In this document: positions 20,046-40,359 of the stretch, in pieces | Position numbering within the stretch: the stretch's first letter is position 1 | How the letters are laid out: each line of letters begins with the position of its first letter | Assembly (NCBI GenBank): GCA_965248195.1 | Contig: CBDFIQ010000002.1 | Span: 512,001 to 576,000, forward strand | DNA length: 64,000 bases | Origin: Longimicrobiales bacterium | GTDB lineage: Bacteria > Gemmatimonadota > Gemmatimonadetes > Longimicrobiales > Gaopeijiaceae | Direction of reading: 5' to 3' | Position numbers and translations under genes: made by a program | Notes under the pieces: model-generated | Told to the model about the DNA's origin: nothing | Seen by the model: the letters and a program-made list of their open reading frames with translations, nothing else | The model's database searches: none

Positions 20046-20280
20046 TGCCCACGAGCTCCTCACACTCTTGGACGAAGCGATCGACAGCCTTCGGCGAGAT
20101 TCGGTAGTGTGCCTTGCCAGAGCGCGACACGTTCAGGACCCCGGGGGGCTTCAGGTGGCCTTCGTGGATCATCTTGAGCACGAAACCGGCGGACATCCCG
20201 CCGATGCGCTCGCCCGCCTGTTCCGTACTGAGCCAGTTGTATGCGGCCTCGTACTGCTCCGGGGTCTTCGTTCTGCTCAC
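20035..20280 (-). CDS. Excisionase-like HTH protein
   Basis: WLSTEQAGERIGG..YRIS..VDRFV; directly upstream of int. Confidence 0.7.
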   Translation of the reverse strand: MSRTKTPEQYEAAYNWLSTEQAGERIGGMSAGFVLKMIHEGHLKPPGVLNVSRSGKAHYRISPKAVDRFVQECEELVGSES

Positions 20281-20281
20281 C

Positions 20282-21076
20282 TCACCACGCCTCTACGGCT
20301 TCAGTGGCCCAGGGAGTCGGGCGCACGACCCGCTCCTCTGCGCCCCGCTCCACCATCCGCCGGAACAAAAGGACCGCGCTGTCTTGCAGTGCGCGTTTCG
20401 TGGGCTCCAGCGCGGCCCCGGCAGCGGCCCAGGCAGCGTCCCCGGCGGCGGCCCTGGTGGCGTCCACGGCGGCGGCCCTGGCGGCGGCCCAGGCAGCGGC
20501 CCCGGCAGCAGCCCAGGCAGCGTCCCAGGCGGCGGCCCTGGCAGCGTCCCCGGCGGCGGCCCTGGTGGCGTCCACGGCGGGGGCCCAGGCGGCGGCCCAG
20601 GCGGCGGCCCAGGCGGCGTCCGATCTGCGAACAGCTCCTAACCTCCCTCGCGCAGCATCGAGCGTTTCCATGTTTACGATCTCGGGGAGCGACTCCAGTC
20701 CCTCAGCGTCCGTGTCCAGGCGGGCCAGCCGCAGCCATGCGGGCGTATAGGTACGGACGATCCAATCCATCGCCATGAAGCCGCGAGCCTCGGCCTGGCC
20801 ATCGCTCGCCGTGCCGACGAGCGCCGGGATGAGTGGCTTCAGCCGCCCTCGTCGCTCGACGTCCAGACGGTCGTTGAGGTCGCGCCCGAACGCGCCGAGC
20901 ACCGGGCAGACGGATTTCGGTTCATCGCTGTGCGGCTCGCACGCCAGCCAGGCGACGGCCTCCATGAGGCACACGCCTTCGTCCGGGCCCTGGTGCGATC
21001 CATTTTCCAGCCTCAGGCGCCCGAACTCCTCCGCGCTCCGCCAGAACCGCGGTTCGCTACGTGTCTCTGTCATCAT
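20282..21076 (-). CDS. Phage protein with AAWA/AARA tetrapeptide repeats
   Basis: GSH..CLMEAV..HSD.P..VCPVL N-terminus; 12-nt repeat array 20410-20620. Confidence 0.75.
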   Translation of the reverse strand: MMTETRSEPRFWRSAEEFGRLRLENGSHQGPDEGVCLMEAVAWLACEPHSDEPKSVCPVLGAFGRDLNDRLDVERRGRLKPLIPALVGTASDGQAEARGFMAMDWIVRTYTPAWLRLARLDTDAEGLESLPEIVNMETLDAARGRLGAVRRSDAAWAAAWAAAWAPAVDATRAAAGDAARAAAWDAAWAAAGAAAWAAARAAAVDATRAAAGDAAWAAAGAALEPTKRALQDSAVLLFRRMVERGAEERVVRPTPWATEAVEAW

Positions 21077-22013: not shown

Positions 22014-22085
22014 TAGCGGGGGGCGGACTCGAACCGCCGACCTTCGGGTTATGGGCCCGACGAGCTGCCGCTGCTCTACCCCGCA
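22014..22085 (-). tRNA. tRNA-Met(CAT), initiator type, no encoded CCA
   Basis: Cloverleaf TGCGGGG..TCGGG-CCCATAA-CCCGA..GGCGG-TTCGAGT-CCGCC-CCCCGCT-A; three G:C anticodon-stem pairs and 1:72 mismatch. Confidence 0.88.
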
Positions 22086-22164: not shown

Positions 22165-23151
22165 TCACGCGGGCTGCGCGTCCAGCGCCCGCTTCTGTAG
22201 GTCCACGATCGCCTCGCGGATTGCACGGCCCTGCTTCTGCTCGATGGCCACGTCCAGTTCGTCTGCTTCCTGGTCCGTGACTACGGGTGTCCCGCCGAGC
22301 GTGTCGAGCAGTTCTTTCAACTGCCGCACCTCGCCCCGTGTCGGTGGCTTGTCGAGATCCTCGTCCTTGTCCGGGCTCCCTGCGAGGTCCTCCGCCATGC
22401 GCTCGGACTTCGACGGGAGCGGCTCGCTGCCGATGACCTCGGCAGGCGTGAGTGAGCCCGTCGATACCGCGTCGTCCTTGGCGATCGCGCGCTCTAGCTC
22501 GGTGCTCATCGGGAGAGATTTGCAGAGGCGCCGGACGGCGGACTTCTTCCACATCTCCGACTCCCAATCGACCCACGGCCCGCGTTGCGAGGCCTTCGAA
22601 GCGGCCCTGATCTTGTTCACTTCCTCGCGAGTCAGAACGACGAACTTTGAGTGCCCGTTGTTGAAGCGTGCGACCGCGTAGGCGTAGGTCAGAACGCCCT
22701 CGTCGTCGGGCCTGCCCTCAGCGGGCTTGTGCGTGAGCACTGGATCAAGCCCGAGGCGGTATTCGAACTCGTCGCCATCGCGTACGACCTGCGGGTCGAT
22801 GTCGTAGACGCGCCCGCCTCGGTAGACCAGCTCGGCCATGCCCCGATAGCCGACTTGGAGTTGGACCTCCTTCTGCTGCGTGTTCTTGTTGTAGTACGGC
22901 ACGAGGTACGCTTGGCCGAGCACACCGGTCGGCTCGAGCCCGAGCCCGCCCACCTCGATCAGAGCGAGTGCCATGCTCTCCTGGCTGCATTCGAGGAGCG
23001 CCGGATTCTTGAGCACGGCGGTGATCGCGACCTTGATGAGCCGCTCGGCCGTGACGTGCTCCGCGATGACCTTCTGGATCGCGGAGGCCTCGCCCTCGAG
23101 GAAGGTCTGGAGCCCCCCTACCATGTCTCTATTCGCTAATGCTGTTCCCAT
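22165..23151 (-). CDS. recT: RecT-family single-strand annealing protein
   Basis: LGLEP..GQAYLVPY..QLQVGYRG..EMWKKSAVRRLCK.LP. Confidence 0.92.
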   Translation of the reverse strand: MGTALANRDMVGGLQTFLEGEASAIQKVIAEHVTAERLIKVAITAVLKNPALLECSQESMALALIEVGGLGLEPTGVLGQAYLVPYYNKNTQQKEVQLQVGYRGMAELVYRGGRVYDIDPQVVRDGDEFEYRLGLDPVLTHKPAEGRPDDEGVLTYAYAVARFNNGHSKFVVLTREEVNKIRAASKASQRGPWVDWESEMWKKSAVRRLCKSLPMSTELERAIAKDDAVSTGSLTPAEVIGSEPLPSKSERMAEDLAGSPDKDEDLDKPPTRGEVRQLKELLDTLGGTPVVTDQEADELDVAIEQKQGRAIREAIVDLQKRALDAQPA

Positions 23152-23160
23152 GAGGTCCTC

Positions 23161-24273
23161 CTAGAAAAACTTGGGCAGGAACCGCCGCGTGCCCGGCTTC
23201 GTCGTGGTGTGCTTCTCGAGCACTCCCTCGACCTCGTCCGGCGTAATCCCGCGAAGTTCCGCCATCGTGGATAGTTCGATGAACGCGGCCTTGTGGTCGG
23301 TCACGTCGCCGTCCTTCGTCTTCTTCCAAGTGATCTTGAAGCCGGGGCCGATGAGCGTAGCGAGTTCGCCCATCCTGTCCTTCACGGCGTTCTCGGCTGC
23401 GGTCTTCGCCGTCTGTGCTTCCTTGGCCGCTTCGCGGGCGTCGTGCAGATCGTCGGCTAACACAGCGTATTTGTGGCGACCGTCGACTGTCAGTTCGGAA
23501 TCCGGCTTGTGTTCCGGATAGAAGATGCCGAGCGCCTTCTTGCCGGTCTCGGTATTCATCGCCTCGGGCGGGTGCCGTCGCTGGATCCTGCTCCAGAACA
23601 ACATCTCCTCGTCAAGGATCTTGGCCTGTAGGTCCGCATTCGGATCTACCGTGAACACCCGGAACTTCTGGCCACCGACCAGCGTCGGTACGATCACCGG
23701 TAGGGCCTCCCCTGTGATGCTCTCGTAGACCATCGACTCGTGCTGGCACTGGACGATGTACTCGTCGGGGATCTCGTCGGTGAGCTCGTCGTCCAGATTC
23801 CAGCGCTCGGCCATCCAGGTGCCCGCCGTCTTGGCTTCGACGAGCGCAATCACCTCGCCCGGACGGTAGCCGGCGTTCCCCAGCACCAACCCGTCCAGAT
23901 GACAGCCGATGAAATCGTGGTCGGCGTGGCGGAGCGTGTCGAGGCGTGCCTCCTCCTCCGGCGCTGCGGGGCCTTGCCACCCGTCCGGGTGGAACCGCAC
24001 GACCTCGTCAGCGCGGTTGCGCCCTACGATGACGTGACCGGAGCGCGTGGCGTACTGCTGCAGGATCACGGGCTCGAGGATCAGCCCCCACTCGGCCGGC
24101 TCGCTCATCTCGCCGCGCTCTGTCAGCCCGAGCTTATCCAGATAGAGATCGAGCGGCGTGCTGCCCTCCCATGGACTGAGCCCCATCACCTTCGGGGCAT
24201 CCGAGCCGCCGATCAGGGTGCTTCGAACAGCTGGATCTGATGCGGGACCGCGTACGCTCGTCGCCGTGCTCAT
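23161..24273 (-). CDS. YqaJ-like viral recombinase exonuclease
   Basis: IGGSDAP, WGLILEPVI, HLDG..EAKT, YIVQCQH; upstream of recT. Confidence 0.88.
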   Translation of the reverse strand: MSTATSVRGPASDPAVRSTLIGGSDAPKVMGLSPWEGSTPLDLYLDKLGLTERGEMSEPAEWGLILEPVILQQYATRSGHVIVGRNRADEVVRFHPDGWQGPAAPEEEARLDTLRHADHDFIGCHLDGLVLGNAGYRPGEVIALVEAKTAGTWMAERWNLDDELTDEIPDEYIVQCQHESMVYESITGEALPVIVPTLVGGQKFRVFTVDPNADLQAKILDEEMLFWSRIQRRHPPEAMNTETGKKALGIFYPEHKPDSELTVDGRHKYAVLADDLHDAREAAKEAQTAKTAAENAVKDRMGELATLIGPGFKITWKKTKDGDVTDHKAAFIELSTMAELRGITPDEVEGVLEKHTTTKPGTRRFLPKFF

Positions 24274-24650
24274 CGGATCGCCTCCCACTCACGCACGAAG
24301 TCTTGCCAGGTGGGGCAATCCCTGAGCTTCACTGAGCGCTGATGCAGGGCAACCCAGGCCGCGACCTTCGCTTCCGATCCGTAGCATGAAGCCGGTGGCA
24401 CGTTTCTGAGCCAACGCAGGATGTACTCAATGCAGTGCCGGTTTCGGTCGTCAGCGCTCCGAAAGGTGCCGAACAGATCGCCCACGAGCACAGCGTATAG
24501 GAACGAGCCGACCGGCCTGCCGTGCTCCACGTATTCGATCAGAGCATCGATCGTGTATTCCGGGATTGCCACCCAGGCCTGCGGTCTCAGTGGGATACGG
24601 CCGTTCATTCCTCCTTCGGGCACAAGGGCCCGCTCCTTGACCTCATTCAT
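24270..24650 (-). CDS. Hypothetical phage protein
   Basis: GGAGG RBS; GSFLYAVL.GDL..AD..N motif; stop overlaps yqaJ start. Confidence 0.6.
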   Translation of the reverse strand: MNEVKERALVPEGGMNGRIPLRPQAWVAIPEYTIDALIEYVEHGRPVGSFLYAVLVGDLFGTFRSADDRNRHCIEYILRWLRNVPPASCYGSEAKVAAWVALHQRSVKLRDCPTWQDFVREWEAIR

Positions 24651-27173: not shown

Positions 27174-27449
27174 TCACGATGCCACCTCCGCTGGCTTCGG
27201 TGCAGACCCGTCAATGAGTTGATCGACCTGTTCCCGAGTCAGGCCGAGACGCTCGGCAAGCGCGTCCCGGATGTCGTCGTAGCGCCGACGCCCCTGGAGA
27301 CACATGCTCACTTCCTCGATGTACCGACCGAGGTACCGCGCAAAATCCCGGTACGTCTCGTATCCGGCCTCGCGCATGAGCGCCTTTAGTTGATCGGCCC
27401 CCGTCATGCCGTCGAGGATGCGGCGCTCTACTTCGTTGATCTTGGCCAT
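27174..27449 (-). CDS. Cro-like HTH protein
   Basis: Small XRE-type HTH divergent from the repressor. Confidence 0.7.
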   Translation of the reverse strand: MAKINEVERRILDGMTGADQLKALMREAGYETYRDFARYLGRYIEEVSMCLQGRRRYDDIRDALAERLGLTREQVDQLIDGSAPKPAEVAS

Positions 27450-27469: not shown

Positions 27470-27587
27470 GTTAAGTCGTTAACCAACACACAGTCCATCT
27501 CTACCGCTGTGGCGGCAAGTGTTAACGGCTAAACGTCAACCTGCGGTTTTCGCGAACCGTTGTCAAGAGGCGTATTGACGGTGAACC
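27470..27587. promoter_or_regulatory. cI/cro operator region
   Basis: Related near-palindromes GTTAAGTCGTTAAC (27470), GTTAACGGCTAAAC (27521), TTGACGGTGAAC (~27575); minus-strand TTGACA 27561-27566. Confidence 0.5.
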
Positions 27588-28498
27588 GTGAATTGGCATT
27601 CCGGGAGAGACTGGCCGAAGCGATTCGGCTATCCGGCCTTCAGAAGCAAGAAATCGCCAGCACACTGGAGATTAGGAGGTCGACGATCTCGTCATGGTTG
27701 AGTACAGGCGAAAGCGGCACACTTCCCCGCACAGACCAGCTTTTGCGGTTAGTCGGTATTTTAGGGATCTCCAGCCATTGGCTACTTACCGGCGAGGGTC
27801 CGATCGTTCCCGACCTGGTAAGAGACCGACGTATGATTGCGATGCACGGCGTCCTAAGTGCTACTCCAGAGCAACTGGCGGAGCTGATTGAGCTGATCGA
27901 ACCGTCAGCGGCCGTCAGTGATAACGACAACGGAGCAACCGATCCGGCGGCCTCACGCGAGGAGCTGGAAGCCGCGCTCCAGCGCATTACGGAAGAGCAC
28001 GACCGCCTCCGGGCTCAGGTGTCAGGAGGCCCCGAGCTCCCGGACCCCGACGTGTCCCCGATCCAGTCAGCGCCGGGGTGGCGGGACGAAGACTACGAGA
28101 CCGTGAGACGCTACGAGTCCGAGGATGTAGCGCTCGCGGCGGGAACCGGCACATTCGCCGACCAAGAACCCGTCGCAGGTGAGGTCAAATTCCGCACAAG
28201 CTGGCTGCGGGAGCACCACCTGAGGGCCAATGACCTCTTTCTGGTCGATGTCTTGGGCGATAGTATGGAGCCCACGATCTGCGACGGAGACTCGGCGCTA
28301 GTTGATGAGACCCACAGATCACCACGCAGCGGCAAGATCTACGCACTGCGTACGGGAGACGGTCCACTCGTCAAGCGGCTGCGGAAGCGTGACCACCGCT
28401 GGTGGGCGGACAGCGACAACGATAAGTACGAGCCCCAGCCGCTCGACGATGTAGCCCGAATCCTAGGGCGCGTCGTCTGGTGGGCGCACACGGATTAG
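27560..28498 (+). CDS. CI-like repressor (XRE HTH plus S24 peptidase)
   Basis: HTH with HWLLTGEG; A-G cleavage site (LAAG), GDSMEP, LVKRL, GRVVW. Confidence 0.9.
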   Translation: MSRGVLTVNRELAFRERLAEAIRLSGLQKQEIASTLEIRRSTISSWLSTGESGTLPRTDQLLRLVGILGISSHWLLTGEGPIVPDLVRDRRMIAMHGVLSATPEQLAELIELIEPSAAVSDNDNGATDPAASREELEAALQRITEEHDRLRAQVSGGPELPDPDVSPIQSAPGWRDEDYETVRRYESEDVALAAGTGTFADQEPVAGEVKFRTSWLREHHLRANDLFLVDVLGDSMEPTICDGDSALVDETHRSPRSGKIYALRTGDGPLVKRLRKRDHRWWADSDNDKYEPQPLDDVARILGRVVWWAHTD

Positions 28499-28571
28499 GG
28501 GAGATGTTTCACTAACGGCTATCCCCCCATGGCGCACAATAATGGCGCACAATAGAGGAGGGTTGTTACCA

Positions 28572-29075
28572 ATGAGAAAGGTTGACGCAGTTCGAGGACT
28601 CTCCGTTTTCGCTCTCGCGATCTCGGTAGTTGGATGTGGCACGATGTTCGGCGGCACTACCAAGAATATCTCAGTCACGTCCGCGCCATCAGCCGCAACG
28701 ATCACGACAAACCCCAGTACAGCCGTTTTCACAACTCCAACCACTCTAAATCTTCAGCGCAAGAACGAATACACACTTATCGCCCGGAGGGATGGGTACA
28801 ACGAAGCTCAGTTCCAGATTCGTAAGTCTATGCGAGCCGGGCCGCTCATTCTGGATATTCTATTCACGGGCCTGCTCGGAGTGATCGTGGACGCCGCCAC
28901 TGGCGGCTGGTGGGACCTCAATCCCGAGGATGTGACCCTCGTCCTTGAGCGCGTGGACGACAGCGTCGATGGCCCGGTTGCGATCGAGGTATCCATCAGT
29001 TCGTCGCGAAACGACCCTGGCTCTATGGTGATCGACGCTACCGAACCGGTCCAGATCGAACTTATCGCGAACTAA
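28572..29075 (+). CDS. PEGA-like domain lipoprotein (cargo)
   Basis: Lipobox VVGC; ISVTSAPSAA..TP..RDGY..IVDAATG. Confidence 0.7.
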   Translation: MRKVDAVRGLSVFALAISVVGCGTMFGGTTKNISVTSAPSAATITTNPSTAVFTTPTTLNLQRKNEYTLIARRDGYNEAQFQIRKSMRAGPLILDILFTGLLGVIVDAATGGWWDLNPEDVTLVLERVDDSVDGPVAIEVSISSSRNDPGSMVIDATEPVQIELIAN

Positions 29076-29084
29076 CGGGGTGGT

Positions 29085-29228
29085 GGTCCACTGGTCAAGC
29101 GGCTTCGCAAGCGCGACCATCGCTGGTGGGCGGATAGCGACAACGAAGAGTACGAGCCGCAGCCGCTCGAGGATCGAGCCCGAATCATGGGCCGCGTCGT
29201 CTGGTGGGCGCACACGGAGGAGGGGTGA
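29085..29228 (+). repeat. Diverged copy 2 of cI 3' end
   Basis: Encodes GPLVKRLRKRDHRWWADSDNEEYEPQPLEDRARIMGRVVWWAHTEEG*; matches 28361-28498. Confidence 0.92.
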
Positions 29229-29275
29229 GGGCGGCCGCCTATCCCCCCCTGGTGGAAAACGAATAGGAGGGTGTC

Positions 29276-29340
29276 GTGGCACTTCAACCATGCCGCGAGT
29301 GAGGCAAGGAAATCAGTACCGAAGCTACCTGCTCCAAGAT
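29276..29340 (+). pseudogene. Zinc-ribbon protein N-terminal stub
   Basis: After AGGAGG: (M)ALQPCRE*GKEISTEATC, a CxxC with Cys replaced by TGA. Confidence 0.5.
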
Positions 29341-29470
29341 CGCTTCCGCGTTGTCGCAACCACAGCAATCGATCGCATGCCGAGTTATCTGAGCGGCCAA
29401 CCCGCTCTAATTCTCCCTCGACCCCGACCGTAAGAAGCCTACGCTGACTACCCGCCCAAAGGAGCCCCAG

Positions 29471-30664
29471 ATGTCTGAGAAGCACAACCAGACACGGTCT
29501 GTCCTCCGAAGCCTGATAGTCTGTGCTGTCGGCCTTCTCCCAGGCATGGCGTGGCCCTGGGCAACGCTCACACCCCAGGTCCCCTCCGACGCTCCCGTGA
29601 CCACGGACGCGCATTTCCATATGCTCGACTTCCTACAAAACGGTGAATATCTGGACGACGGTAGCCTGGTCTATAGTTCTCCAGCCAACACCCTCCCCTC
29701 GGGCGAGCGGGGCAAGCGTATTGAGGCCGTGTTTTGGGCGATGGATCAGGCGAACGTGAGCCACGCGGTCATCATGGGCATGCCGTTCCTAAAGAAGTGG
29801 GGATTGAGTGATGCCTTCCGACCCCAATACTACCTCGACAGCAGCTCACGCATGGTGCGTGCACGCGACACGGACTACGTCTTGGCTCTGGCCATTGAGG
29901 ACTACCGGCGCACGCACGGTACCGCAGCCGACGCTGAACTTGCCCGTTTGTTTCCGTCTATCTCTGGGTTCGATGGGACCGACCTTGGAGCTGTTGATAT
30001 GATCGTCAAGCGCATCAAAGAATTCCCTGGTGTGTTTAGGGGAATCGGCGAGGCCATGTCGCGCCATGACGACTTGACGAACCTGACCACAGGAGAACGA
30101 CCCCGAGCAGACCACCCCGCGTTCTTCCGAATCTTCGACTTCGCCGGTCGTGTAGGGATGCCGGTCATTATCCATCACAATATCGCCCCCATCTCTGCAA
30201 GCGAGGGGGTGAAGGACCCTGACTATCTCCCCGAGATACTGAGAGCGTTCGAGGAGTTCCCCAACACGACTTTCATCTGGTCTCACGCCGGAATCAGCCG
30301 TCGTATCACGGTGGCTGACCTTCCTGGTATCCTGGATTCGATTCTCGACCGGCACCGGGACCATGTGTACATCGGTCTTTCGTGGGTCGTATACGAGGAC
30401 TATGTATTGAGAGACTTAGACTCTTGGTCAGAGCTCATCCGTCGTTATCCGAACAACTTTGTGATCGGATCGGATGTGGTGGGACGGTACGACGGGTATG
30501 CAACAACGGTCCGTAGGTACGACACGCTTCTCTCGAATCTCGAAGCAGACGTGGCCGACAACGTGGGGCGTGCTAATCTGCTGAGAATCATGCCGCAGGA
30601 TGGGATCACGCTAGATCGCGAGTATGCCTATCCTGAGAACGCGTACACCGGCAACCGGAATTGA
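29471..30664 (+). CDS. Secreted amidohydrolase-family protein (cargo)
   Basis: DAHFH, GIGE, IIHHN, WSHAG, IGSD. Confidence 0.8.
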   Translation: MSEKHNQTRSVLRSLIVCAVGLLPGMAWPWATLTPQVPSDAPVTTDAHFHMLDFLQNGEYLDDGSLVYSSPANTLPSGERGKRIEAVFWAMDQANVSHAVIMGMPFLKKWGLSDAFRPQYYLDSSSRMVRARDTDYVLALAIEDYRRTHGTAADAELARLFPSISGFDGTDLGAVDMIVKRIKEFPGVFRGIGEAMSRHDDLTNLTTGERPRADHPAFFRIFDFAGRVGMPVIIHHNIAPISASEGVKDPDYLPEILRAFEEFPNTTFIWSHAGISRRITVADLPGILDSILDRHRDHVYIGLSWVVYEDYVLRDLDSWSELIRRYPNNFVIGSDVVGRYDGYATTVRRYDTLLSNLEADVADNVGRANLLRIMPQDGITLDREYAYPENAYTGNRN

Positions 30665-30676
30665 GACGGACGGGGC

Positions 30677-30869
30677 CTCCGCCTCAGCGGGTTTCTACGA
30701 ATCTCCGTGGGCGAAGCATCCACGGCTCCAGCTTCTGACAATCGAAGAGCTGCTCCAGGGCGGGAGGATCGATTACCCCTCGACACCCGGCACGAACGTC
30801 ACGTACAAGCGGGCACCAAGGAAAGAGAAGCAAACCGCCGAACAGCTGCGTCTCGGAGAAGGGGAATGA
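30677..30869 (+). pseudogene. C-terminal stub of an MTase/Mrr-type fusion protein
   Basis: ASAGFYES..PRLQLLTIEELL.G..IDYP..NVTYKRA. Confidence 0.5.
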
Positions 30870-30881
30870 GGCATGCCGCCA

Positions 30882-30920
30882 GGCCGCGTCGTCTGGTGGG
30901 CGCACACGGAGCGGGGGTGA
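30882..30920 (+). repeat. Copy 3 of cI 3' end
   Basis: GRVVWWAHTERG*; 26-bp core identical. Confidence 0.88.
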
Positions 30921-30983
30921 TGATGGGCAAGGAGCGGCAAGTACGTAGGATCTCGGAGCAATGACTCGATCGGAGCGGACCAG

Positions 30984-31208
30984 ATGACGGACACACATCG
31001 CGTCCTGCCCCACCCAGACGGTGGCTGGCAGGTGAAGAGAGACGGGAGAAACCGCGCGTCGAAGCGGACTCGGACGAAGGCCGAAGCCGAGGCAAGCGGT
31101 CGGGAGACCAGCCAGAACCAGCGGACCGAGCTGGCCATCCACCGGAAGGATGGCACGATCGAGCGGCGCGATAGCCACGGGAACGACCCGCCGAGCCGAC
31201 CCGGTTGA
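30984..31208 (+). CDS. DUF2188 protein
   Basis: HRVLPH..GWQVKRDG..RAS..IHRKDGTI..RDSHGNDP. Confidence 0.85.
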   Translation: MTDTHRVLPHPDGGWQVKRDGRNRASKRTRTKAEAEASGRETSQNQRTELAIHRKDGTIERRDSHGNDPPSRPG

Positions 31209-31209
31209 G

Positions 31210-32016
31210 GTGGAGAGCCTAGAGCCTCTGAAAGTCCTGATTTGGGCCAAGACCTACCCCGAACTTTCGAAGAGGCACCGCGAAACGGTTTGCACCGGAG
31301 GATGCCTAGAAGACGGCACGCCAATCCGCCTCTACCCGGTCCCGCTCCGGTATCTCCCTGTCACGAGCCAATACCGACTCTACGACTGGATTTCCGTGCC
31401 GCTTCGCCGCAACTCGATGGACACCCGTCCGGAGAGCTTCCGGGTCGCACAAGGAGTGATGCCGACGACGGTCGGTAAGGCGAGGACGACCCACGGATGG
31501 GAGGCACGGAGGGAGGTCGTGTTCAAACGACAGGATTGGCACTTCGACTGTGCCTCGGACCTGCACGCCGCGCAGGAACGCGCAGGGACCTCGCTCGGAC
31601 TCGTAGCGGTGCGTGACGTTGATCGTGTGAGTGTGTCGTCGAGGCCGGACAGTGATCGCGTTGAGCACCAGGCAAGGTTGCGCACCCTGAGAGCGAACCG
31701 AGACCTGTTCGGGGGTGCCGGTATTCAGAAGGATTTGGAGTTCCTCCCGTGGCGTTTCAAACTCTGGTGGCGCTGCGAGGCCAAGGGATGCGACGGCCAC
31801 TCGGGATCCGTCCTAGACTGGGGGCTCGGCGAGTTGGCGCGCCGCGAGGGACCGGATAGCGCCGAAGCCAAGCTCCGAGAGCTGACCGACCTAGGGCGCT
31901 ACGACCTACGGCTCTTCCTCGGAAACATGAAGATGCGACCTCGGACCTTCAGCATCGTCGGGCTTTGGCATCCGCTGCGCTCTGAGCAGGCCCAGCTCTC
32001 GTTGTTCATCGACTGA
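31210..32016 (+). CDS. Hypothetical protein (KTYP..ETVC..RLYP family)
   Basis: Intact 268-aa ORF convergent with DUF488. Confidence 0.7.
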   Translation: MESLEPLKVLIWAKTYPELSKRHRETVCTGGCLEDGTPIRLYPVPLRYLPVTSQYRLYDWISVPLRRNSMDTRPESFRVAQGVMPTTVGKARTTHGWEARREVVFKRQDWHFDCASDLHAAQERAGTSLGLVAVRDVDRVSVSSRPDSDRVEHQARLRTLRANRDLFGGAGIQKDLEFLPWRFKLWWRCEAKGCDGHSGSVLDWGLGELARREGPDSAEAKLRELTDLGRYDLRLFLGNMKMRPRTFSIVGLWHPLRSEQAQLSLFID

Positions 32017-32500
32017 CGAAGCGGGGGGCTCCATCCGGGCCGAGGTGCTCGACCCGTGCCTCGAGCCCGAGCACTTCGAGGAGGATGTGGCGGTGGCAGT
32101 CCTCCGGATGCCGCTCATAGCAAAGGAGGCAGCCCTTCTCGCCTTCGCGGGATAGCTCTTCAAGCAGCGCCCGCAGGCGTTCCGCGATCTGGGGGTGCGC
32201 GTTTAGGTGCGCTCGGTACATCGCTAGGCACTCCTCGTGAGACCGGGCGCTCTGCCGGATCCACTTTGGGTTGCCCGCAAACTGTGCGTGGAGGTATCGG
32301 ATCCCTCGCTCCGCAAGCACGACCCGCAGCGTCGCGGCCCGGTACGCAGGGACGTAACTCCACGGTGTCTCTCGAACGTCGATGACGACCGACACGCCTG
32401 CGCCGACCAGTTCGGTCAGCAGGTCGTCCATTGGTCGAAGCTGGTAGCCGACTGTACTTACCAAGTGCTTCCCGACAGCTAGGGGGTTATCGTGCCGCAA
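32006..32500 (-). CDS. DUF488 protein
   Basis: TVGY, IDVR..P.S, GIRY.H..GNP, LLCYE..P..CHR. Confidence 0.85.
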   Translation of the reverse strand: MRHDNPLAVGKHLVSTVGYQLRPMDDLLTELVGAGVSVVIDVRETPWSYVPAYRAATLRVVLAERGIRYLHAQFAGNPKWIRQSARSHEECLAMYRAHLNAHPQIAERLRALLEELSREGEKGCLLCYERHPEDCHRHILLEVLGLEARVEHLGPDGAPRFVSR

Positions 32501-32594
32501 GCCGCCAAGTTAGGACCGATCGGCTGCCCGCGCCAAGCCGATGCGCTTGTTGGTGATGGGTCATCTCAAACTGACCCATCACCGCGGCTCCGGT

Positions 32595-32768
32595 AAGTGT
32601 GCGGGCGACGACGCCGAGTGGTTGCCTCCGAGGAGCCAGTGCTGGTTCGCCGACCGGGTCGTCTCCGTGAGGAGGAAGTACCGCCTCACCATCGACCCGC
32701 TAGAGGCTGCAGCTCTGGACCGCGTACTTTCGGGTTGCGGTTCCACGGTCGGGCACACTCCGCTCTAG
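32595..32768 (+). pseudogene. DUF1524/HNH nuclease C-terminal stub
   Basis: DAEWLPP..CWFA..VV.V..KY.LTID..E..AL. Confidence 0.5.
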
Positions 32769-32855
32769 CCGGGACACTGTCCTCAGAAGATCACCTCGCC
32801 CGGTTGCTTATAACTCCTTACAATATTGCAGGTGCGGCCCCACCAGGTACCGAAC

Positions 32856-33625
32856 GGTCAAGTCCCGATTTGTGTGTAAAAGCGGAGGAAGCTCCTCGCC
32901 TTCGGCTAGGCTGCTTGGGCGACCTCCTGTTTCTGGAGGAGTGAGAGGTCGAGGTAACGCCGGTCGCCCCAGACGTGTGTGGTCCTGAGTGCGACGGCCG
33001 TGATGAGCCTGAGGGCGCTGGCCCGGTCCGGGAAGGCGCCGGCGGCCTTGATCCTGCGTTTGATCTCGCCGTGCAGCCGCTCGAGGCTGTTGGTGGTACG
33101 CAGCCGGGGCCAGTGCGCCTCGGGGAACGCGTAGAACTGCGTCGCTGCCCCGAAGCCCCGCTCCAGGACCTCCACGGCCTCGGGCAGCTCCTTCTTCCAG
33201 CGTGCGCCGAACTCGCCCAGGAGCTTCTTCGCCTCGGCGAGTCCGGATGTCTGGAAGATCACCGAGACCTCACGCGCCACGCGCTTGCGTAGGCGGTGGG
33301 GGACCCTCGCCCCCACATTACGCTGCAGATGGACCGTACACCTCTGACGGCGTGCCTCGGGCAGGAAGCGGCGGACCGCAGCTGCCAGGCCTGCGTGCTC
33401 ATCGGCGATCACGAGCTCGACACCGCCGAGGCCGCGGTCCTGGAGTTGCTCGAGGAGCTCCGACCAGCTCTGCTGCGACTCCTCAGCGCCCAGCGTGACG
33501 GCCAGGAGCCGTCGGTGACCCTCAGGGCCCACTGCATACGCCACGAGCGCACTCACGTTCTCGACTTTGCGGGCCCAGCGGGCGTCCAAGAACGTGGCGT
33601 CCAGGTACAGATAGGGGTGAGGCCC
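32856..33625 (-). mobile_element. IS256 copy 2, inverted and 5'-truncated
   Basis: Reverse complement of the right 770 bp of copies 1 and 3, including the right IR. Confidence 0.93.
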
Positions 33626-35001
33626 GGTAGTGTCCCTAGATTTGTGTAAAAGCGGATAAGCTGGACAGGAGGGAAAGAAAAACGGAAGCTCCTCTGTTGT
33701 TGTTCACTGTCACATGAACCCGGGAGTCCGGGTCTGCAGAGCAGGCTCGGAACCGGAGAGGAGCTTCCGATGCAAGAGATTGTGGAGATCGGTCGGGCCA
33801 CGCAAGACGAGCTACGCGATGATTTGCGCGAGCTGTTTCAAGGCGCGATCCGGCTGACGCTCGAGATGGTGCTGGAAGAGGAGCTGAAGGCCATGGTAGG
33901 TGCACGCCGCTTCGAGCGGGTGGGAAGCCGGAAGGACCATAGGAACGGCACATACCTGAGGCGGCTGCTGACGAGCCTGGGGCAGATCGAGGTCGCCATG
34001 CCCCGGAGCCGGGACAACGGTTCGCCGGCCGACGTGATCGGCCGCTACCAGCGCAGGAGCCCCGAGCTCGACGAGATGATGGTCGAGGCGTATGTGAGCG
34101 GCGTGTCACAGCGCAAGATGGGCGACGTCACCGAGGCGCTGATGGGCGAGCGTGTTGGGCGCTCGACGGTGAGTCGTGTGGCAAAACGGCTCGACGAGGC
34201 CGTGGAAGGGCTGCGCCGTGCGCCGATCGAGGGGCCTCACCCCTATCTGTACCTGGACGCCACGTTCTTGGACGCCCGCTGGGCCCGCAAAGTCGAGAAC
34301 GTGAGTGCGCTCGTGGCGTATGCAGTGGGCCCTGAGGGTCACCGACGGCTCCTGGCCGTCACGCTGGGCGCTGAGGAGTCGCAGCAGAGCTGGTCGGAGC
34401 TCCTCGAGCAACTCCAGGACCGCGGCCTCGGCGGTGTCGAGCTCGTGATCGCCGATGAGCACGCAGGCCTGGCAGCTGCGGTCCGCCGCTTCCTGCCCGA
34501 GGCACGCCGTCAGAGGTGTACGGTCCATCTGCAGCGTAATGTGGGGGCGAGGGTCCCCCACCGCCTACGCAAGCGCGTGGCGCGTGAGGTCTCGGTGATC
34601 TTCCAGACATCCGGACTCGCCGAGGCGAAGAAGCTCCTGGGCGAGTTCGGCGCACGCTGGAAGAAGGAGCTGCCCGAGGCCGTGGAGGTCCTGGAGCGGG
34701 GCTTCGGGGCAGCGACGCAGTTCTACGCGTTCCCCGAGGCGCACTGGCCCCGGCTGCGTACCACCAACAGCCTCGAGCGGCTGCACGGCGAGATCAAACG
34801 CAGGATCAAGGCCGCCGGCGCCTTCCCGGACCGGGCCAGCGCCCTCAGGCTCATCACGGCCGTCGCACTCAGGACCACACACGTCTGGGGCGACCGGCGT
34901 TACCTCGACCTCTCACTCCTCCAGAAACAGGAGGTCGCCCAAGCAGCCTAGCCGAAGGCGAGGAGCTTCCTCCGCTTTTACACACAAATCGGGACTTGAC
35001 C
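33626..35001 (+). mobile_element. IS256 copy 3 (transposase 33770-34951), no TSD
   Basis: Same ends and same 393-aa protein as copy 1. Confidence 0.95.
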
Positions 35002-35202
35002 CTGGCTGCTGTGAGCGGTCCGGGCCACGAGCGCGGCCTGAGCCTCTTCGAGCGCAACCGCCTGGGCATCGATGACGATCACTGCATCGGCGTGCCTGGA
35101 GCGCCACAGCGCGGCCGTGGAATCTGCGGCAGATAGCTGAACCCGCAGGGCCTGAACGACGGACTGGTGCGCCTCGCGCTCCTCTTCCAACCCCGTAGAC
35201 AA
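35002..35202 (-). pseudogene. Coiled-coil phage gene remnant cut by IS256
   Basis: GLEEEREAHQSVVQALRVQL.. runs into the IS end. Confidence 0.3.
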
Positions 35203-35252
35203 ACCCTCTGCCTCTTGACATATAGTATCCTATTGGATACATTATACCGTGT

Positions 35253-35546
35253 ATGAACTACACGGTCACCAAGAGCAATACCTTTCTTCGCTGGCTAAAG
35301 GGACTGCGTGACAAGCGTGCTCAGGCACGGATCGTCATCCGCATCGATCGCATCGAGGAGGGTAACCTTGGGGACCACAGATCGGTCGGCGGTGGCGTCA
35401 GCGAACTGCGCGTCGATGTTGGCAAGGGCTACCGTGTCTACTACACAATTCGCGACAAAGCGCTGGTGATTTTGCTCTGTGGGGGAGACAAGTCAACGCA
35501 GCCGCAAGACGTACAACGTGCCCAGCAGATGGCAAGTGAACTCTAA
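35253..35546 (+). CDS. RelE/HigB-type addiction module toxin
   Basis: FLRWLKGLRD..GNLGD...GGGVSELRVDVGKGYRVYY..LLCGGDKSTQ. Confidence 0.92.
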   Translation: MNYTVTKSNTFLRWLKGLRDKRAQARIVIRIDRIEEGNLGDHRSVGGGVSELRVDVGKGYRVYYTIRDKALVILLCGGDKSTQPQDVQRAQQMASEL

Positions 35547-35552
35547 GGAGGG

Positions 35553-35855
35553 ATGATGGGCAAAGAGACGTATACTCCATGGGACAGTGCTGAAGTTCTC
35601 GATAATGATGAGGCAGTCGTCGAATATTTGCAGGCAGCGCTTGAAGAAGACGATCCGGAGTTTTTCGTCAAAGCCGTTGGCAACGTTGCGCGCGCCATCG
35701 GCATGGCCGTCATCGCTGAGGAATCCCAGCTCGGTCGCACCAGCTTGTACAAAGCATTGTCCGGAGAGCGCAATCCACGGATCGGCACCGTAATGAGGGT
35801 TCTTCGCACGTTTGGTGTCCGACTCACCGTTGCACGACGACCACAGACCCGCTGA
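35553..35855 (+). CDS. Addiction module antidote (HTH antitoxin)
   Basis: WDSAEVL..YLQAALE..ARAIGM..SLYKALS..NP. Confidence 0.92.
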   Translation: MMGKETYTPWDSAEVLDNDEAVVEYLQAALEEDDPEFFVKAVGNVARAIGMAVIAEESQLGRTSLYKALSGERNPRIGTVMRVLRTFGVRLTVARRPQTR

Positions 35856-35878
35856 GAGGCTCGTAAGTGGCAGATTCT

Positions 35879-37335
35879 GAAGCTGTCCCAACCGTAGTTG
35901 AAGGTTCCTGATAGGGGAGAAAGAAAAGTGGTGGCTCCGGGGGTCCCGGGCCGATAGGCTCGGGTAGGCAAAAACCCCAACACGGAGCCACCACGATGAA
36001 GAGAACGTACGAGGTAAGGGATCGGGCGGACAAGCGCGCGATCAGGGAGTTCCTGAAGCGGGAGGGGCAGTTTCTGCTTCCGATGCTTGAGCTCGTGGAG
36101 CAGACGGAGGTCGCGATCGACGAAGTCATCCAGGTGATGGGACGAGCGACGATCGAAGCGGTGCTGGAGATGAGCGCCGAGGGTGTGGCAGGCGTGAAGC
36201 AGGCAGGTCGGTCACGAGCGGAAGACGACACGGTGTGGTATGGCCGGCAGGGTGGTGTGGTTTACCTGTCGGACCGGAAGGTGCGTGTGGAGCGGCCACG
36301 GCTCAGGCGCCGGGGCGCCGGGGAGGGTGGCGAGGTCGAGGTGCCGGCGTACGCAGCGATGCGGAGACCGGGCGCCGTGGCGGATCGGATGCTCGAGGTC
36401 CTGATGGCGGGGGTGAGCACGCGGAAGTACGGCCGTGTGATCGGTGAGATGGCCGACACGGTCGGGGTGAGCAAGTCGGCGGTGAGCCGTGAGACGGTCG
36501 AGGCCTCGGAGCGCGTGCTGAAGGAGCTGATGGAGCGCCGGCTGGATGCGTGGGACCTCCTGGTGATCTACCTGGACGGGATCCAGATGGGCTCGCACCA
36601 CGTGCTTGCTGCGGTAGGCGTGGACTCAGACGGAAAGAAGCACGTGCTGGGCGTGAGGGAAGGAGCGAGTGAGAACGCCGAGGTGACCAGCGCGCTCCTA
36701 GAGGATCTGGTCGAGCGCGGCCTGGACCCGGGCAGGCGGCGGCTGTTCGTGATCGATGGCTCGAAAGCGCTCAGGAAGGCGATCGAGAAGGTGTTCGGCC
36801 AACGTCACCCCATCCAGCGCTGCCGCAACCACAAGCTCCGCAACGTGCTGGGTCATCTGCCGAAGGATCAGCATCCTCAGGTGAAGGCGGCGTTCCGGGC
36901 GGCGATGAAGCTGGACGCGAAGCAGGGCGAGCAGAAGCTCGAGCAGCTCGCCCGATGGCTCGAGCGCGACCACCCCTCGGCCTCGGCCAGCCTACGCGAA
37001 GGCCTCAGCGAGATGTTCACGATCAACCGGCTCGGCCTCCCGCCGCGGCTGAGGAAGTGCCTGGGCTCGACCAACCTGATCGACAGCACCCACTCGGGCG
37101 TAAGACAGAAGACCCGCAGGGTGACCAACTGGAAGAACGGAGCGATGGCCTTGCGCTGGGCTGCGGCCTCGTTCGTGGAGACCGAGAAGAGCTACCGGAG
37201 GATCATCGGCTACGACCAGCTCTGGATGCTCAGGGCCCACCTCGACGACCATGAACCGGTTGCCGAAATGAGAAAGGCAGGCTAACAAGGAGACTCTCCG
37301 GAGCCACCACCTTCAACTGTCAGCGGGACACCATC
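35879..37335 (+). mobile_element. Second IS256-family element (transposase 35996-37285)
   Basis: IRs GAAGCTGTCCC..GTTGAAGG / CCTTCAAC..GGGACACCATC; 8-bp TSD CAGATTCT; YLDG, VIDG, QRC, STN motifs. Confidence 0.93.
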
Positions 37336-37554
37336 CAGATTCTTCCCACCTCGATCGAGGTCGAAGAACCTGCAACGAGACCGAGCCACATGGCCAGGTC
37401 ATGTGGACGGGGAGGACGCTGTGAGGGGACGGGGATTGGCTTGCTGAGGATCGGGCAGTCGATATAGTACCAGCAGCACACGTAGGTAATCCGCCTACGG
37501 ATTTTTTCGCCAAGCCGCCCCCCCCCAGCGGCGGAAAGGGAAGGGACGTGAGAA

Positions 37555-37791
37555 ATGGCCATTACCCGGAGCGCGGTGATCGTGTTGTTTGCGCTGGCCT
37601 GTGGGACGACCTCTACCGAGCCGTGTCGCGAGGTCGAGCAATTCATCGAGTGTACTTACGGGGCCAGGGTATGCGACGTAGCTCTCAAGCAGCGGACGGA
37701 TCAGGGGTTCTCGTGTACGTTCCTGGAAACGATTCGTAACGCCTTCGGGAGGGTACTCGGGGAGCGCTACGTCTGCAAGAAATGCGAGTAG
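37555..37791 (+). CDS. Small Cys-rich lipoprotein
   Basis: Lipobox ALAC; six further Cys. Confidence 0.55.
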   Translation: MAITRSAVIVLFALACGTTSTEPCREVEQFIECTYGARVCDVALKQRTDQGFSCTFLETIRNAFGRVLGERYVCKKCE

Positions 37792-37969
37792 CTCGTGACC
37801 ACCCCGAATGGGTGAGGCCGGTAACCGCCCCAAGGGCCAGGACCTACTTCGCCGCCGGACCTGGCATAGGCCCGGGGACAGCCAGTCCTGTGGACGGGGC
37901 GGGAAGCTGTGAGGGAAATAGTATCACTAAATGGTTGACATGGTACTATAACATAGTTAAATTGGTACC

Positions 37970-38221
37970 ATGAAAAAGAAACACTTCAAGACGCTCGCCG
38001 CGATCTTCGCCAAGCCGACCAACGGCAATATCAAGTGGCAGGACATCGAGTCTCTTCTTCTGGCCTGTGGGGCCACCATCACACCAAGCGGCAAGGGCAT
38101 GAAGATTTCTCTGGGCGGGCAGAAGCTCGCCTACCACAGACCGCATGGTCGGAACAACGCAGGCGAGGGTTTGGTGAAGAGGGTGCGCAGATTGCTTGAG
38201 GATCAGGAGGTGACGCCATGA
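37970..38221 (+). CDS. hicA: HicA toxin
   Basis: IKWQDIESLL..G..HRPH. Confidence 0.85.
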   Translation: MKKKHFKTLAAIFAKPTNGNIKWQDIESLLLACGATITPSGKGMKISLGGQKLAYHRPHGRNNAGEGLVKRVRRLLEDQEVTP

Positions 38222-38541
38222 TCGAGTACAAGGGCTATACGGGGGTCATTGAGTTCAGCGGCATGGATCGGATGTTCTACGGGGAAGTGGTCGGACTGCG
38301 TGACATCATCGGCTTCGAGGGTCGAACAGTCGACGAACTCGAGGACTCGATGCACCAGGCCGTGGACCTCTACCTCGAGATGTGCGAGGAAGACGGCACC
38401 GACCCCGACAAGCCCTACTCGGGGCAGTTCCAGATTCGTGTTGACCCGCTACTGCACCGCCAGATCGCCACCGCGGCAGCGGCGCACAGGATGTCCATGA
38501 ACAGCTTCGTGGGGAAGCGGCTCAAGGAGATCGTTGGATAA
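38218..38541 (+). CDS. hicB: HicB antitoxin
   Basis: EYKGYTG..YLEMC..KPYSG.F..R..P.LH. Confidence 0.9.
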   Translation: MIEYKGYTGVIEFSGMDRMFYGEVVGLRDIIGFEGRTVDELEDSMHQAVDLYLEMCEEDGTDPDKPYSGQFQIRVDPLLHRQIATAAAAHRMSMNSFVGKRLKEIVG

Positions 38542-38560
38542 CCCGCCCAGTGATCCCAAA

Positions 38561-38635
38561 GAGCACGAACCACAGCCGCTCGACGATCGAGCCCGAATCA
38601 TGGGGCGCGTCGTCTGGTGGGCGCACACGGATTGA
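38561..38635 (+). repeat. Copy 4 of cI 3' end
   Basis: EHEPQPLDDRARIMGRVVWWAHTD*. Confidence 0.9.
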
Positions 38636-38747
38636 GGGTGAACAAGGGGGGGGACGGTCGCTTGGGGCTCCGGCCGTCCCCCCTTCGGCGCGGGCACGGG
38701 TCAACACTTCTGTTGACATAAACAGATGTGTTGACTATATTCACTCC

Positions 38748-38936
38748 ATGAATTCAAGCGAATTTCGCCGCTGGCTCAAGAAGCAAGGCTGCTCCTTCGA
38801 GACACATAAGGGCGGCAGCGGCCACCTCACGGTTCGTCGTGGCAACCGCACATCACAATTGCCCTTGCATGGCAGCCGGAAGGAGCTCGGAAAAGGTCTC
38901 GTGGCGAAAATCAAAAAAGACCTGGAGCTAGAGTGA
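38748..38936 (+). CDS. hicA: HicA toxin (second family)
   Basis: SEFRRWLKKQG..GSGH..LPLHG..EL..I.KDL.L. Confidence 0.88.
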   Translation: MNSSEFRRWLKKQGCSFETHKGGSGHLTVRRGNRTSQLPLHGSRKELGKGLVAKIKKDLELE

Positions 38937-38937
38937 T

Positions 38938-39345
38938 ATGTACGACTATCCCGTCAATCTCACCGAAGACAGCAACGGTACGATTCTCGTGACCTCGCCG
39001 GATTTTCCTGAACTCACCACCTTCGGCGACGATGAGGAGGATGCCCTGGCGCGAGCGGCTGACGCTTTCGATGAGGCGATCGCGGCGAGAATCGCGTATC
39101 GGAAGGATGTTCCCCGTCCTTCACGAGGAAAGATTCGTGTGGCGCTTCGTAGCCTCACGGCCGTGAAGCTCATTCTGTACCAAGGAATGCGAGATCAGGG
39201 TGTCGGCAAGGCAGAGTTAGCGCGACGCTTGAATTGGCATTTGCCGCAAGTAGATCGCGTTCTCGATATTCAGCACAACTCGCGCCTCGATCAAATGGAC
39301 GCCGCCTTGGGGGCTATCGGTCTCCGCCTCCATGTAAGCGCGTAA
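38938..39345 (+). CDS. hicB: HicB antitoxin with C-terminal HTH
   Basis: YPV..VTSPDFPE..G..KAELARRL.W..PQVDR. Confidence 0.88.
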   Translation: MYDYPVNLTEDSNGTILVTSPDFPELTTFGDDEEDALARAADAFDEAIAARIAYRKDVPRPSRGKIRVALRSLTAVKLILYQGMRDQGVGKAELARRLNWHLPQVDRVLDIQHNSRLDQMDAALGAIGLRLHVSA

Positions 39346-39804
39346 TCGGGCCCCGAGGTTCACTCACCGACTCGCCAGCGCATAACCAGCCGCGAACACC
39401 CCCGCGTACTTGAGGACCCCAATCACTGGGTCGGACCAGCTGCCTTGGCTCTGGGCGATCCGTGCCGCGAGCGCGCTCTGACACCTCACTCGGGCTCACG
39501 CATCGCTGGGTGCTGTCAGCGGGTGTGATCGGCTGATGGGCGAAAGGGGATCCATGGGGCGAAAAGGGGTCGGGTGGTGGTGGAAGAGAGGGTAGTGTCC
39601 TAATTTGAATTTGGCTGTCGTGGGAATTCCCCGACGCGCCTTCCGTCGGTCTCTATGACTTCGCGCATGGGGCCGGGAACCGCGTCAATGTTTTCGAAGA
39701 TCATCTGCATCTCGACAGGATCGCTGTCGTTGAACGTCATGATCGTGTAGAGGCTCCCTTGACCATCCCCGTCTAGCTCCCAGCGAAAGCCGAGGGTGCG
39801 GGTT

Positions 39805-40359
39805 TCATCCATCGTCAGCGGACGTGCCTAGTATAGCGGGCCCGTACCGTTCGTCCGCCTCCGCTTGGTTGAGGACGATGCCGAGGTCGTCGAGGCGTAG
39901 CCTCGACATACGCGCCAACCCGACCGTCAGCTTCTGGAGCGCCTCGGTGGCTTCGATTCCTTGGGCTCGACCGAGGATGCGCGAGATGTTCACCTGACGC
40001 GCGAACTCTTCCGTGGTCTTAGCCGAGCCAAGCGCAAGAGCCTGGTTGAGCAGGGCCATGAGCTGGAAGTCTTCGATCGTGTTGCGCGAGGCTTCACGGA
40101 GCCTGCGCAGGGCCGCGACCTCGTCGCCCGTGATCTTGGCGAACGTGCGCTTGACCGCGATCACCTTCGAGCCGCGCTCGCCGACCTTGGTAAGTCCGAG
40201 CACCAGAGCAGCCGTCGCCGCGGTGAGAGCGGCTATTCCGCGCGCGACGTCCTTCGCCGTTCGGGTGATGCCCCGCAGCGTACGCCGGAAGCGGCCGACT
40301 ACCGAAGAAGCAATGTCCTTCGCTTTGATGATGACTTCGACGACGTTGCCGCGGGCCAT
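39805..40359 (-). pseudogene. Tape-measure protein, N-terminal 184 aa only
   Basis: VEVIIKAKD.AS start; LDDLGI; follows tail chaperones; far too short. Confidence 0.7.

Follow-up and report, generated by a model that had tools for sequence, protein, structure and literature searches.

Why should the last codons of a phage repressor recur along one strand of a bacterial chromosome, each time at the head of different genes? The question is raised by a prophage of a Longimicrobiales bacterium (NCBI GenBank assembly GCA_965248195.1, contig CBDFIQ010000002.1), of which we analysed a stretch of 64,000 nucleotides (C2:512001-576000 of G000, a 4.86-Mb, two-contig genome rich in insertion sequences (IS)), hereafter the window. 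An earlier note, made from these letters alone, had reported four exact copies of a 26-bp core, and we recovered them at 28469, 29193, 30885 and 38606, all on the plus strand, with none expected from 100 shuffles. The repeats are 3′ ends of the prophage repressor gene cI, which encodes helix-turn-helix (HTH) and S24 domains; copy 1 (28469-28494) is the end of the full gene and the others are 5′-truncated tails. We propose, with a probability of roughly 60 %, that such tails arise by one-sided homologous capture anchored in cI, by which the old 3′ end and its cargo are displaced, and that the short tails later serve as crossover points.

The full cI (27560-28498, plus strand; 312 amino acids; PF00717, PF07022, phrog_4), composed of an HTH, a linker and a type-A S24 domain, forms the left anchor. 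It has the features of a LexA/cI S24 repressor, namely the HTH, an S24 domain with an Ala-Gly site and a Ser-Lys dyad, and a divergent cro-like HTH gene (27174-27449, minus strand; from domain and phrog annotation), and its closest repressors are in Gemmatimonadota records. The S24 Ala-Gly, Ser and Lys are invariant in A2. The three extra copies, previously put at about 144, 39 and 75 bp, align with cI over 144, 42 and 77 bp: tail 2 (29085-29228; 134 nt to the core end, 87.5 % identity), tail 3 (about 30881-30922; 30 nt, 88 %) and tail 4 (38559-38641; 73 nt, 90 % over 38562-38638), all on the plus strand. The reading frame is kept, and the four copies end as described before in HTD*, HTEEG*, HTERG* and HTD*. 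Among the A-type tails of G000, G005 (same genus) and G150 (another genus), 20 of 35 distinct substitutions are synonymous against 22 % expected (20/34 without a false, non-synonymous hit at L030:4883). This allele-like, mostly synonymous variation bears out the suggestion that the tails come from related repressors rather than from a fresh duplication, with functional alleles as their source. Twenty-four A-type tails range from 15 to 134 nt (median 36; 22 are ≤ 75 nt and none exceeds 140); their 5′ ends vary, their 3′ ends sit at the stop codon, and exact runs between the window copies are 26-31 nt long.

Contigs from short reads stop at the tails, and the whole array lies on none of them, as might be expected had strain variants been co-assembled into a chimera. 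However, the same junctions are found in the single-contig genome G005 and in G150, arrays occupy six loci of the two-contig assembly, and run X5, which has a study code other than X1, gives three near-identical contigs over 29191-31894 (29191-29779, 29761-30911 and 30883-31894; 0-3 differing letters). A contig of run X6 contains an L030-type joint at 30679. The runs listed as containing the sequence included none of RNA. X1, possibly the sample from which the assembly came, does not count here as independent; the lipoprotein gene of the first module and the cI N-terminus, uncovered in X5, X6 and X9, were not used. We give the chimera almost no credence.

Whether multi-copy tails with variable cargo recur had been set out as a check, and they do. 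Six loci of G000 contain between them 16 A-type ends, of which 2 belong to full genes and 14 are tails; G005 has two arrays, and G150 has two arrays and an A-type cI behind which 14.8 kb contain no tail. Ends of other repressor types (B, C and D) occur in other arrays, and A, B and D tails stand behind repressors in the Acidobacteriota records L127, L129, L130 and L131 and in the IMG/VR locus L147. A BLAST search with each repressor's own tail, which misses tails of another type, covered 99 loci, 58 of them with at least 3 kb downstream; three of five positives repeated known loci and were dropped, leaving L129 and L131 as new, and re-examination of 15 loci gave the other-type tails at L127, L130 and L147. 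When 42 S24 domains were placed on a tree, every tail-bearing gene belonged to one of two clades (A and B/D), 13 of whose 25 members have tails, against none of the 17 other domains; the tree is a chosen subset of loci in which kin share labels, and it speaks of clustering only. Among 60 relatives the core pattern matched in one, and among 400 the D-tail pattern matched in G150 and, with 3 mismatches, in G144. The exact core had no match in IMG/VR, and own tails were found at none of 16 distant IMG/VR repressors and none of 17 repressors of G016, G109 and G146. Matches in 301 records of cultured phages, one place each, were all below 60 % identity, too distant to reveal tails. We found no description of cI-tail arrays in the open-access PMC and bioRxiv literature (supplements excluded, most subscription papers outside).

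Several observations stand beside these counts. All 14 and 5 matches of the A-type core pattern in G000 and G005 lie on the contig forward strand, and GC skew gave no clear link to the replichores. Nine closely related S24 repressors (L108-L116) occur in the 3.7-Mb genome G016, none with own tails, and an IMG/VR contig has two full HTH-S24 repressors in tandem (L069:8979-10339). A link of the core to tRNA genes was rejected as coincidence: most of 23 metagenome stretches with a 20-nt core pattern are reverse-complement tRNA 3′ ends, none is a cI tail, and host tRNA ends do not match the core. Retro-copying by a reverse transcriptase with a tRNA primer was likewise set aside, with no PF00078 in G000 or G005 and one unrelated reverse transcriptase in G150.

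Among relatives the modules have moved as units. Window 28504-29218, containing module 1 (28504-29084, plus strand; a leader, a PEGA-like lipoprotein gene at 28572-29075 and the junction, delimited by L028 homology and Atlas neighbours), is 95.4 % like L028:8837-9540, has the same cargo-tail junction and stops exactly where core 2 ends. Window 29085-30679 begins at the 5′ edge of tail 2 and is 99.2 % like L030:9016-10610, making tail 2 an overlap zone of an L028-like left and an L030-like right block. It carries module 2 (29229-30679, plus strand; a leader, a broken zinc-ribbon stub from 29276 and an amidohydrolase at 29471-30664, PF04909), second in the window and first in L030, directly behind a full cI, as the earlier idea that another cassette can come first had anticipated. 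Window 30679-30920 matches L030 again up to 10 nt past core 3 and includes the 3′ remnant of an N6/N4 methylase-Mrr gene (about 30679-30880, plus strand; 97.9 % to L030:14387-14628, where the gene has PF01555/PF04471). A D-type tail with the toxin-antitoxin (TA) pair HicAB-1 (37885-38548) is 96.2 % like L230:7665-7003, in which the tail is intact. A RelE module and its tail from the right-hand flanking gene are common to L006 and L104 (92 %), and a lipoprotein behind a D tail to L129 and L130. Homology blocks thus end at tails in all four window modules having a match in relatives.

This regularity bears on the view that the tails are inert scars, left by out-of-register fusions of related prophages and IS-driven decay and without further role. 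The genome carries 113 hits of the window's IS256 and 56 other IS hits, the prophage is truncated, many cargo genes are broken and some arrays have stacked tails without cargo, all of which such a view would accommodate. It accounts poorly, however, for block ends at tails in four of four modules, for allele-like synonymous variation in place of random decay, and for the L130 arrays with exact repeats around intact cargo; we consider it unlikely.

A livelier alternative takes excision and re-integration of circles between tails as the main route, a cassette circle inserting at the cI end of another phage and taking first place. In L130 one cargo lies between two exact copies of an 80-bp A+D double tail, and another between copies of a 133-bp leader; with the change of place of module 2 and the exact runs between window copies these repeats fit circles, and excerpts of PMC2839356 and PMC2935791 describe mini-circles as shown for PeSL cassettes and proposed for rhs, respectively. 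Circles cannot however create a first tail or a change of repressor type in the absence of a left copy, and tails of 15-20 nt fall under the pairing minima given in the consulted part of PMC3945230 (23-27 bp for Red-beta, 31-34 bp for RecA), which the window runs come near. The one deletion mapped in the window, about 3.8 kb lost at 30679 relative to L030, used no tail, unlike the copy-to-copy deletions predicted earlier. Recombinant copy-to-copy junctions sought in the run contigs had sides of ≤ 33 nt or were other cI alleles, none of them convincing, and no circle was found there. Circles may contribute to the exchange, yet an array cannot begin with them, and as the main route they are a minority prospect. 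The proposal that tails are shuffling points therefore stands in part: modules are reassorted at them, and tail-to-tail recombination explains neither first tails nor type switches.

These switches lead back to anchored capture. Behind the full repressor of L002/L004 (B,A; a single event common to both), L104 (D,A), L127 (A,D), L129 (D,A) and L130 (B,A,D) lies, at a distance of 5-57 nt, a tail of a different type. Such an order reads as replacement with retention, and neither tandem duplication nor a tail-to-tail event yields it. An 88-nt exact run in the linker is shared by the A-type cI of L102 (G150, another genus) and the B-type cI of L002 (G000), and a 35-nt exact run by the A-type of L028 and the D-type of L104. 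Given the type switches and the shared linker runs, S24 domains have been swapped behind a common linker, with the old end left in place. We infer the capture step from these end products, which combine one homologous anchor, a non-homologous joint and a retained tail. A fragment from a related phage would pair inside cI, in the linker or the S24 domain, and bring its own cI end and cargo; its far end would join illegitimately slightly upstream of the old cI end, which would be pushed downstream with its cargo as a 5′-truncated tail. Long repeats would tend to collapse, so that mostly short tails persist, and at these RecT/YqaJ or RecA could trade whole modules between phages, whether resident in one host or infecting it.

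Capture from the right would proceed in the same way, anchored in the last late gene. Integrase, RecT/YqaJ and cro run leftward, followed by the rightward cI, the cargo and the leftward late genes, so the cargo slot lies between two convergent 3′ ends, those of cI and the last late gene. The window has a 5′-truncated 3′ tail of the latter (39361-39474, minus strand; 91 % to L103 and 78 % to the full gene end in L104) and a fragment whose 3′ end is lost at an IS (35002-35202, minus strand; 77-78 % to L103 and L104), and extra copies of such mirror tails occur in L002, L006, L103, L104 and L229. In L104 the gene is full (209 amino acids, a membrane anchor and a coiled coil, no family match); its Atlas neighbours are unnamed phage proteins and its recognition is low, and it may be spanin-like. 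Any conserved flanking gene can serve as an anchor, and because the right-hand gene leaves mirror tails, a cI-specific site cannot explain the arrays.

The mirror tails tell as well on whether a site-specific recombinase, be it the phage integrase or a host IntI, takes the 26-bp core for an att site. In its favour, the four window copies of the core are identical, and integron integrases are encoded elsewhere in G005 and G150, with a broken one in G000. Yet the 5′ ends differ, core variants and partial cores occur, and the B-, C- and D-type and right-gene tails share no core. The tyrosine integrase of the prophage (18795-20063, minus strand; PF00589, phrog_1) is not an IntI and has no match to the integron-integrase model TIGR02249, whose matches in G000, G005 and G150 lie outside every array examined. 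Neither the core nor the D tail has an attC-like fold: on both strands their folding does not exceed that of shuffled sequences (z −0.5 to −1.2), in a test made without Rfam or attC models. An att site is accordingly very improbable, and the core loses the special standing first given to it, as tails also stem from other repressor types and from the flanking gene on the far side.

Several points weigh against anchored capture, and some against any tidy cassette system. Tail 2 is an interleaved allele mosaic and not a single crossover, and the tail-free deletion at 30679 departs from orderly exchange. Two mapped joints with a known parent have only 1-nt or imperfect overlap, and the donor-side parent was not found for most junctions. 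Twelve of the 25 repressors in the A and B/D clades have no tail (two of these have ≤ 1.5 kb downstream). Tail searches detect only joints that leave tails, and clustering near the stop codon is partly a matter of ascertainment. Excerpts of PMC5361080 call the homology-facilitated illegitimate route rare, and those of PMC3945230 call illegitimate recombination infrequent in phages. The candidate recombination pair, RecT and a YqaJ-type exonuclease (22165-24288, minus strand; TIGR00616 above cut-off, PF03837, PF09588), is present as previously stated; RecT is strong only in the window prophage, with weak partial matches near six other prophage loci and none found in G458/G459, and ERF was not found in three genomes. 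As RecT is clear only here, RecA or another annealase may act elsewhere.

The cargo of the window is mixed, and the labels assigned earlier hold for the amidohydrolase, DUF2188, DUF488, HicAB and RelE/HI1420. The PEGA lipoprotein has no Pfam match at E 0.01 and owes its name to Atlas neighbours at 0.96-0.97 that carry PEGA; the zinc-ribbon stub is an open reading frame (ORF) broken by a stop, and its leader is 76 % similar to the one before a zinc-ribbon gene in L028. The leaders of modules 1 and 2 (28519-28562 and 29238-29272) have a C-run and then a GGAGGG ribosome site before the cargo start, as in L002 and L004; their hairpins fold no better than shuffles. Module 3 (30984-32768, mixed strands) comprises DUF2188 (PDC-S16), a PDC-M19B-like gene of 288 amino acids, DUF488 (PDC-M19A-like, minus strand) and a nuclease remnant 73 % like a GmrSD_C gene in L103. 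An IS256 pair follows (32856-35001), a full copy with a head-to-head inverted partial copy of 770 bp. Five cargo regions (window 32819-32855, C1:821153, C1:1479232, C2:2561189 and C2:3023127) share a 37-bp element without mismatch, and its window copy abuts IS256. Beyond lie a RelE/ParE toxin and HI1420 antitoxin (35253-35855, plus strand; TIGR02683 and TIGR02684 above cut-off; promoter-like site at 35215) and a second IS256-family element with an 8-bp target duplication (35879-37335, plus strand).

A type-D tail ending GQVMWTGRTL* (37392-37424, plus strand; 94 % like the 3′ end of the complete L104 cI of type D) is followed by a lipoprotein-like ORF of 78 amino acids without family match (37555-37791, plus strand), and a degenerate D tail (about 37881-37916, plus strand) heads HicAB-1 (37970-38541, plus strand; promoter-like site at 37935); HicAB-2 (38748-39345, plus strand; site at 38713) stands behind tail 4. 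Hairpin-like stretches precede D-type tails in the window (37337-37390), L001, L104 and L006, and could be a terminator travelling with the tail. The earlier inventory had assigned the TA pairs downstream of DUF488 to copy 3, missing the two D-type tails, the two last-late-gene fragments and the methylase remnant (30679-30869), so not all of these pairs belong to that copy. Six sigma-70-like sites were found against 2.4 expected; three TA modules have their own site, so first position need not matter for them. No tail contains a promoter-like site, and the one weak minus-strand terminator-like match in tail 4 is no more than chance would give (9 such matches against 7.2 expected). The interval between cI and module 1 yielded no terminator-like call, and read-through from cI is therefore possible. 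By family annotation, from which all cargo names are taken, the relatives add restriction-modification (RM) systems, AbiU2, RelA/SpoT, Panacea, HigBA, PIN, Bor, Sel1 and ankyrin proteins.

The prophage itself is defective: a gene that follows the tail tube gene (PF18906), and is by this position tape-measure-like, is cut at 39805 (39805-40359, minus strand), the later tail and lysis genes are missing, and no att pair was found. Other features of the window include a fusion of major capsid protein and S49 prohead protease (44186-46951, minus strand), a phage ORF of 264 amino acids with about 14-17 tandem 12-nt repeats of AAW/AAA motifs (20282-21076, minus strand), and two related 62-nt repeats (478-539 and 687-748; 73 %), possibly structured RNA. 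Four related G000 prophages contain an identical-ended tRNA-Met(CAT) (window about 22014-22085, minus strand; C1:360685, C1:810392 and C1:1457825).

From the tails one can read in what order and by what route a prophage cargo slot gained its genes, a history of which most phages keep no trace. Anchored illegitimate capture, circles and plain swaps become testable against each other on repeats of 15-134 nt and a linked RecT/YqaJ. The tails also delimit modules and so give a list of candidate defence genes from poorly studied phyla (PDC-S16, PDC-M19, PDC-S33, PDC-S34, PDC-M41, AbiU2, RM and TA), and they document repressor domain swapping across S24 lineages about 35-40 % alike. More tentatively, and at clearly less than even odds, the arrays could be integrase-free, two-sided capture arrays that are actively used, in which the closing codons of the repressor and the last late gene are shared recombination handles of a cassette pool in Gemmatimonadota and Acidobacteriota prophages, with the same events swapping the S24 induction domain. 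Cargo order, defence content and induction behaviour would then change together.

How do these arrays compare with known systems? Defence hotspots of P2/P4 phages were reportedly described by Rousset in 2022. In the part of PMC13586616 drawn on here, such hotspots are likewise flanked by conserved phage genes and variable in content, with many defence and TA genes and turnover by recombination; they are described there as swaps with small remnants and without anchor-tail arrays, whereas here cargo accumulates serially behind marked tails. PeSL cassettes of T4-type phages, according to excerpts of PMC2839356 (Arbiol 2010), share short repeats that flank accessory genes as crossover points without a dedicated recombinase. 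Those repeats are promoter-terminator elements of lytic phages, with early promoter, stem-loop terminator and demonstrated mini-circles, unlike the tails, which are cI coding remnants without a fold, their circles hypothetical. Closer in its steps is the displacement of effector-immunity modules in the type VI secretion system (T6SS) of Vibrio: passages of PMC5361080 (Kirchberger 2017) describe one homologous anchor with an illegitimate joint, displaced 3′ ends that are kept, and an integron-like order without integrase, in a chromosomal weapon locus under selection on immunity genes rather than a prophage slot with mixed cargo.

The rhs and contact-dependent inhibition (CDI) orphan arrays, as portrayed in parts of PMC2935791 (Jackson 2009) and PMC3150448 (Poole 2011), begin with an intact anchor, behind which come incomplete copies of it that differ in length and stand each before a module of its own; modules that are shared are bounded by the anchor motif, and new modules push old ones downstream. 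The present arrays have the same build, with partial copies after an intact anchor and modules repositioned in relatives within homology bounded by those copies. Rhs/CDI loci, however, keep a core upstream of a variable in-frame toxin tip with its immunity gene, whereas here the anchor is an HTH-S24 repressor of which the last codons recur, the cargo consists of separate genes, several repressor types take part and a second anchor works from the other side. With integrons, to which the earlier note had likened the array, the likeness is limited to layout, new cassettes plausibly entering beside a promoter-bearing gene; the absence of a dedicated integrase was rightly stated, and the arrays lack IntI, attC structure and a fixed crossover, with 5′ ends at 15 to 134 nt and several unrelated tail types. 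The arrays work like rhs/CDI arrays, Vibrio T6SS displacement and PeSL shuffling, and they are not members of those families, nor an integron; most likely they represent anchored displacement in a variant form and not a novel machinery.

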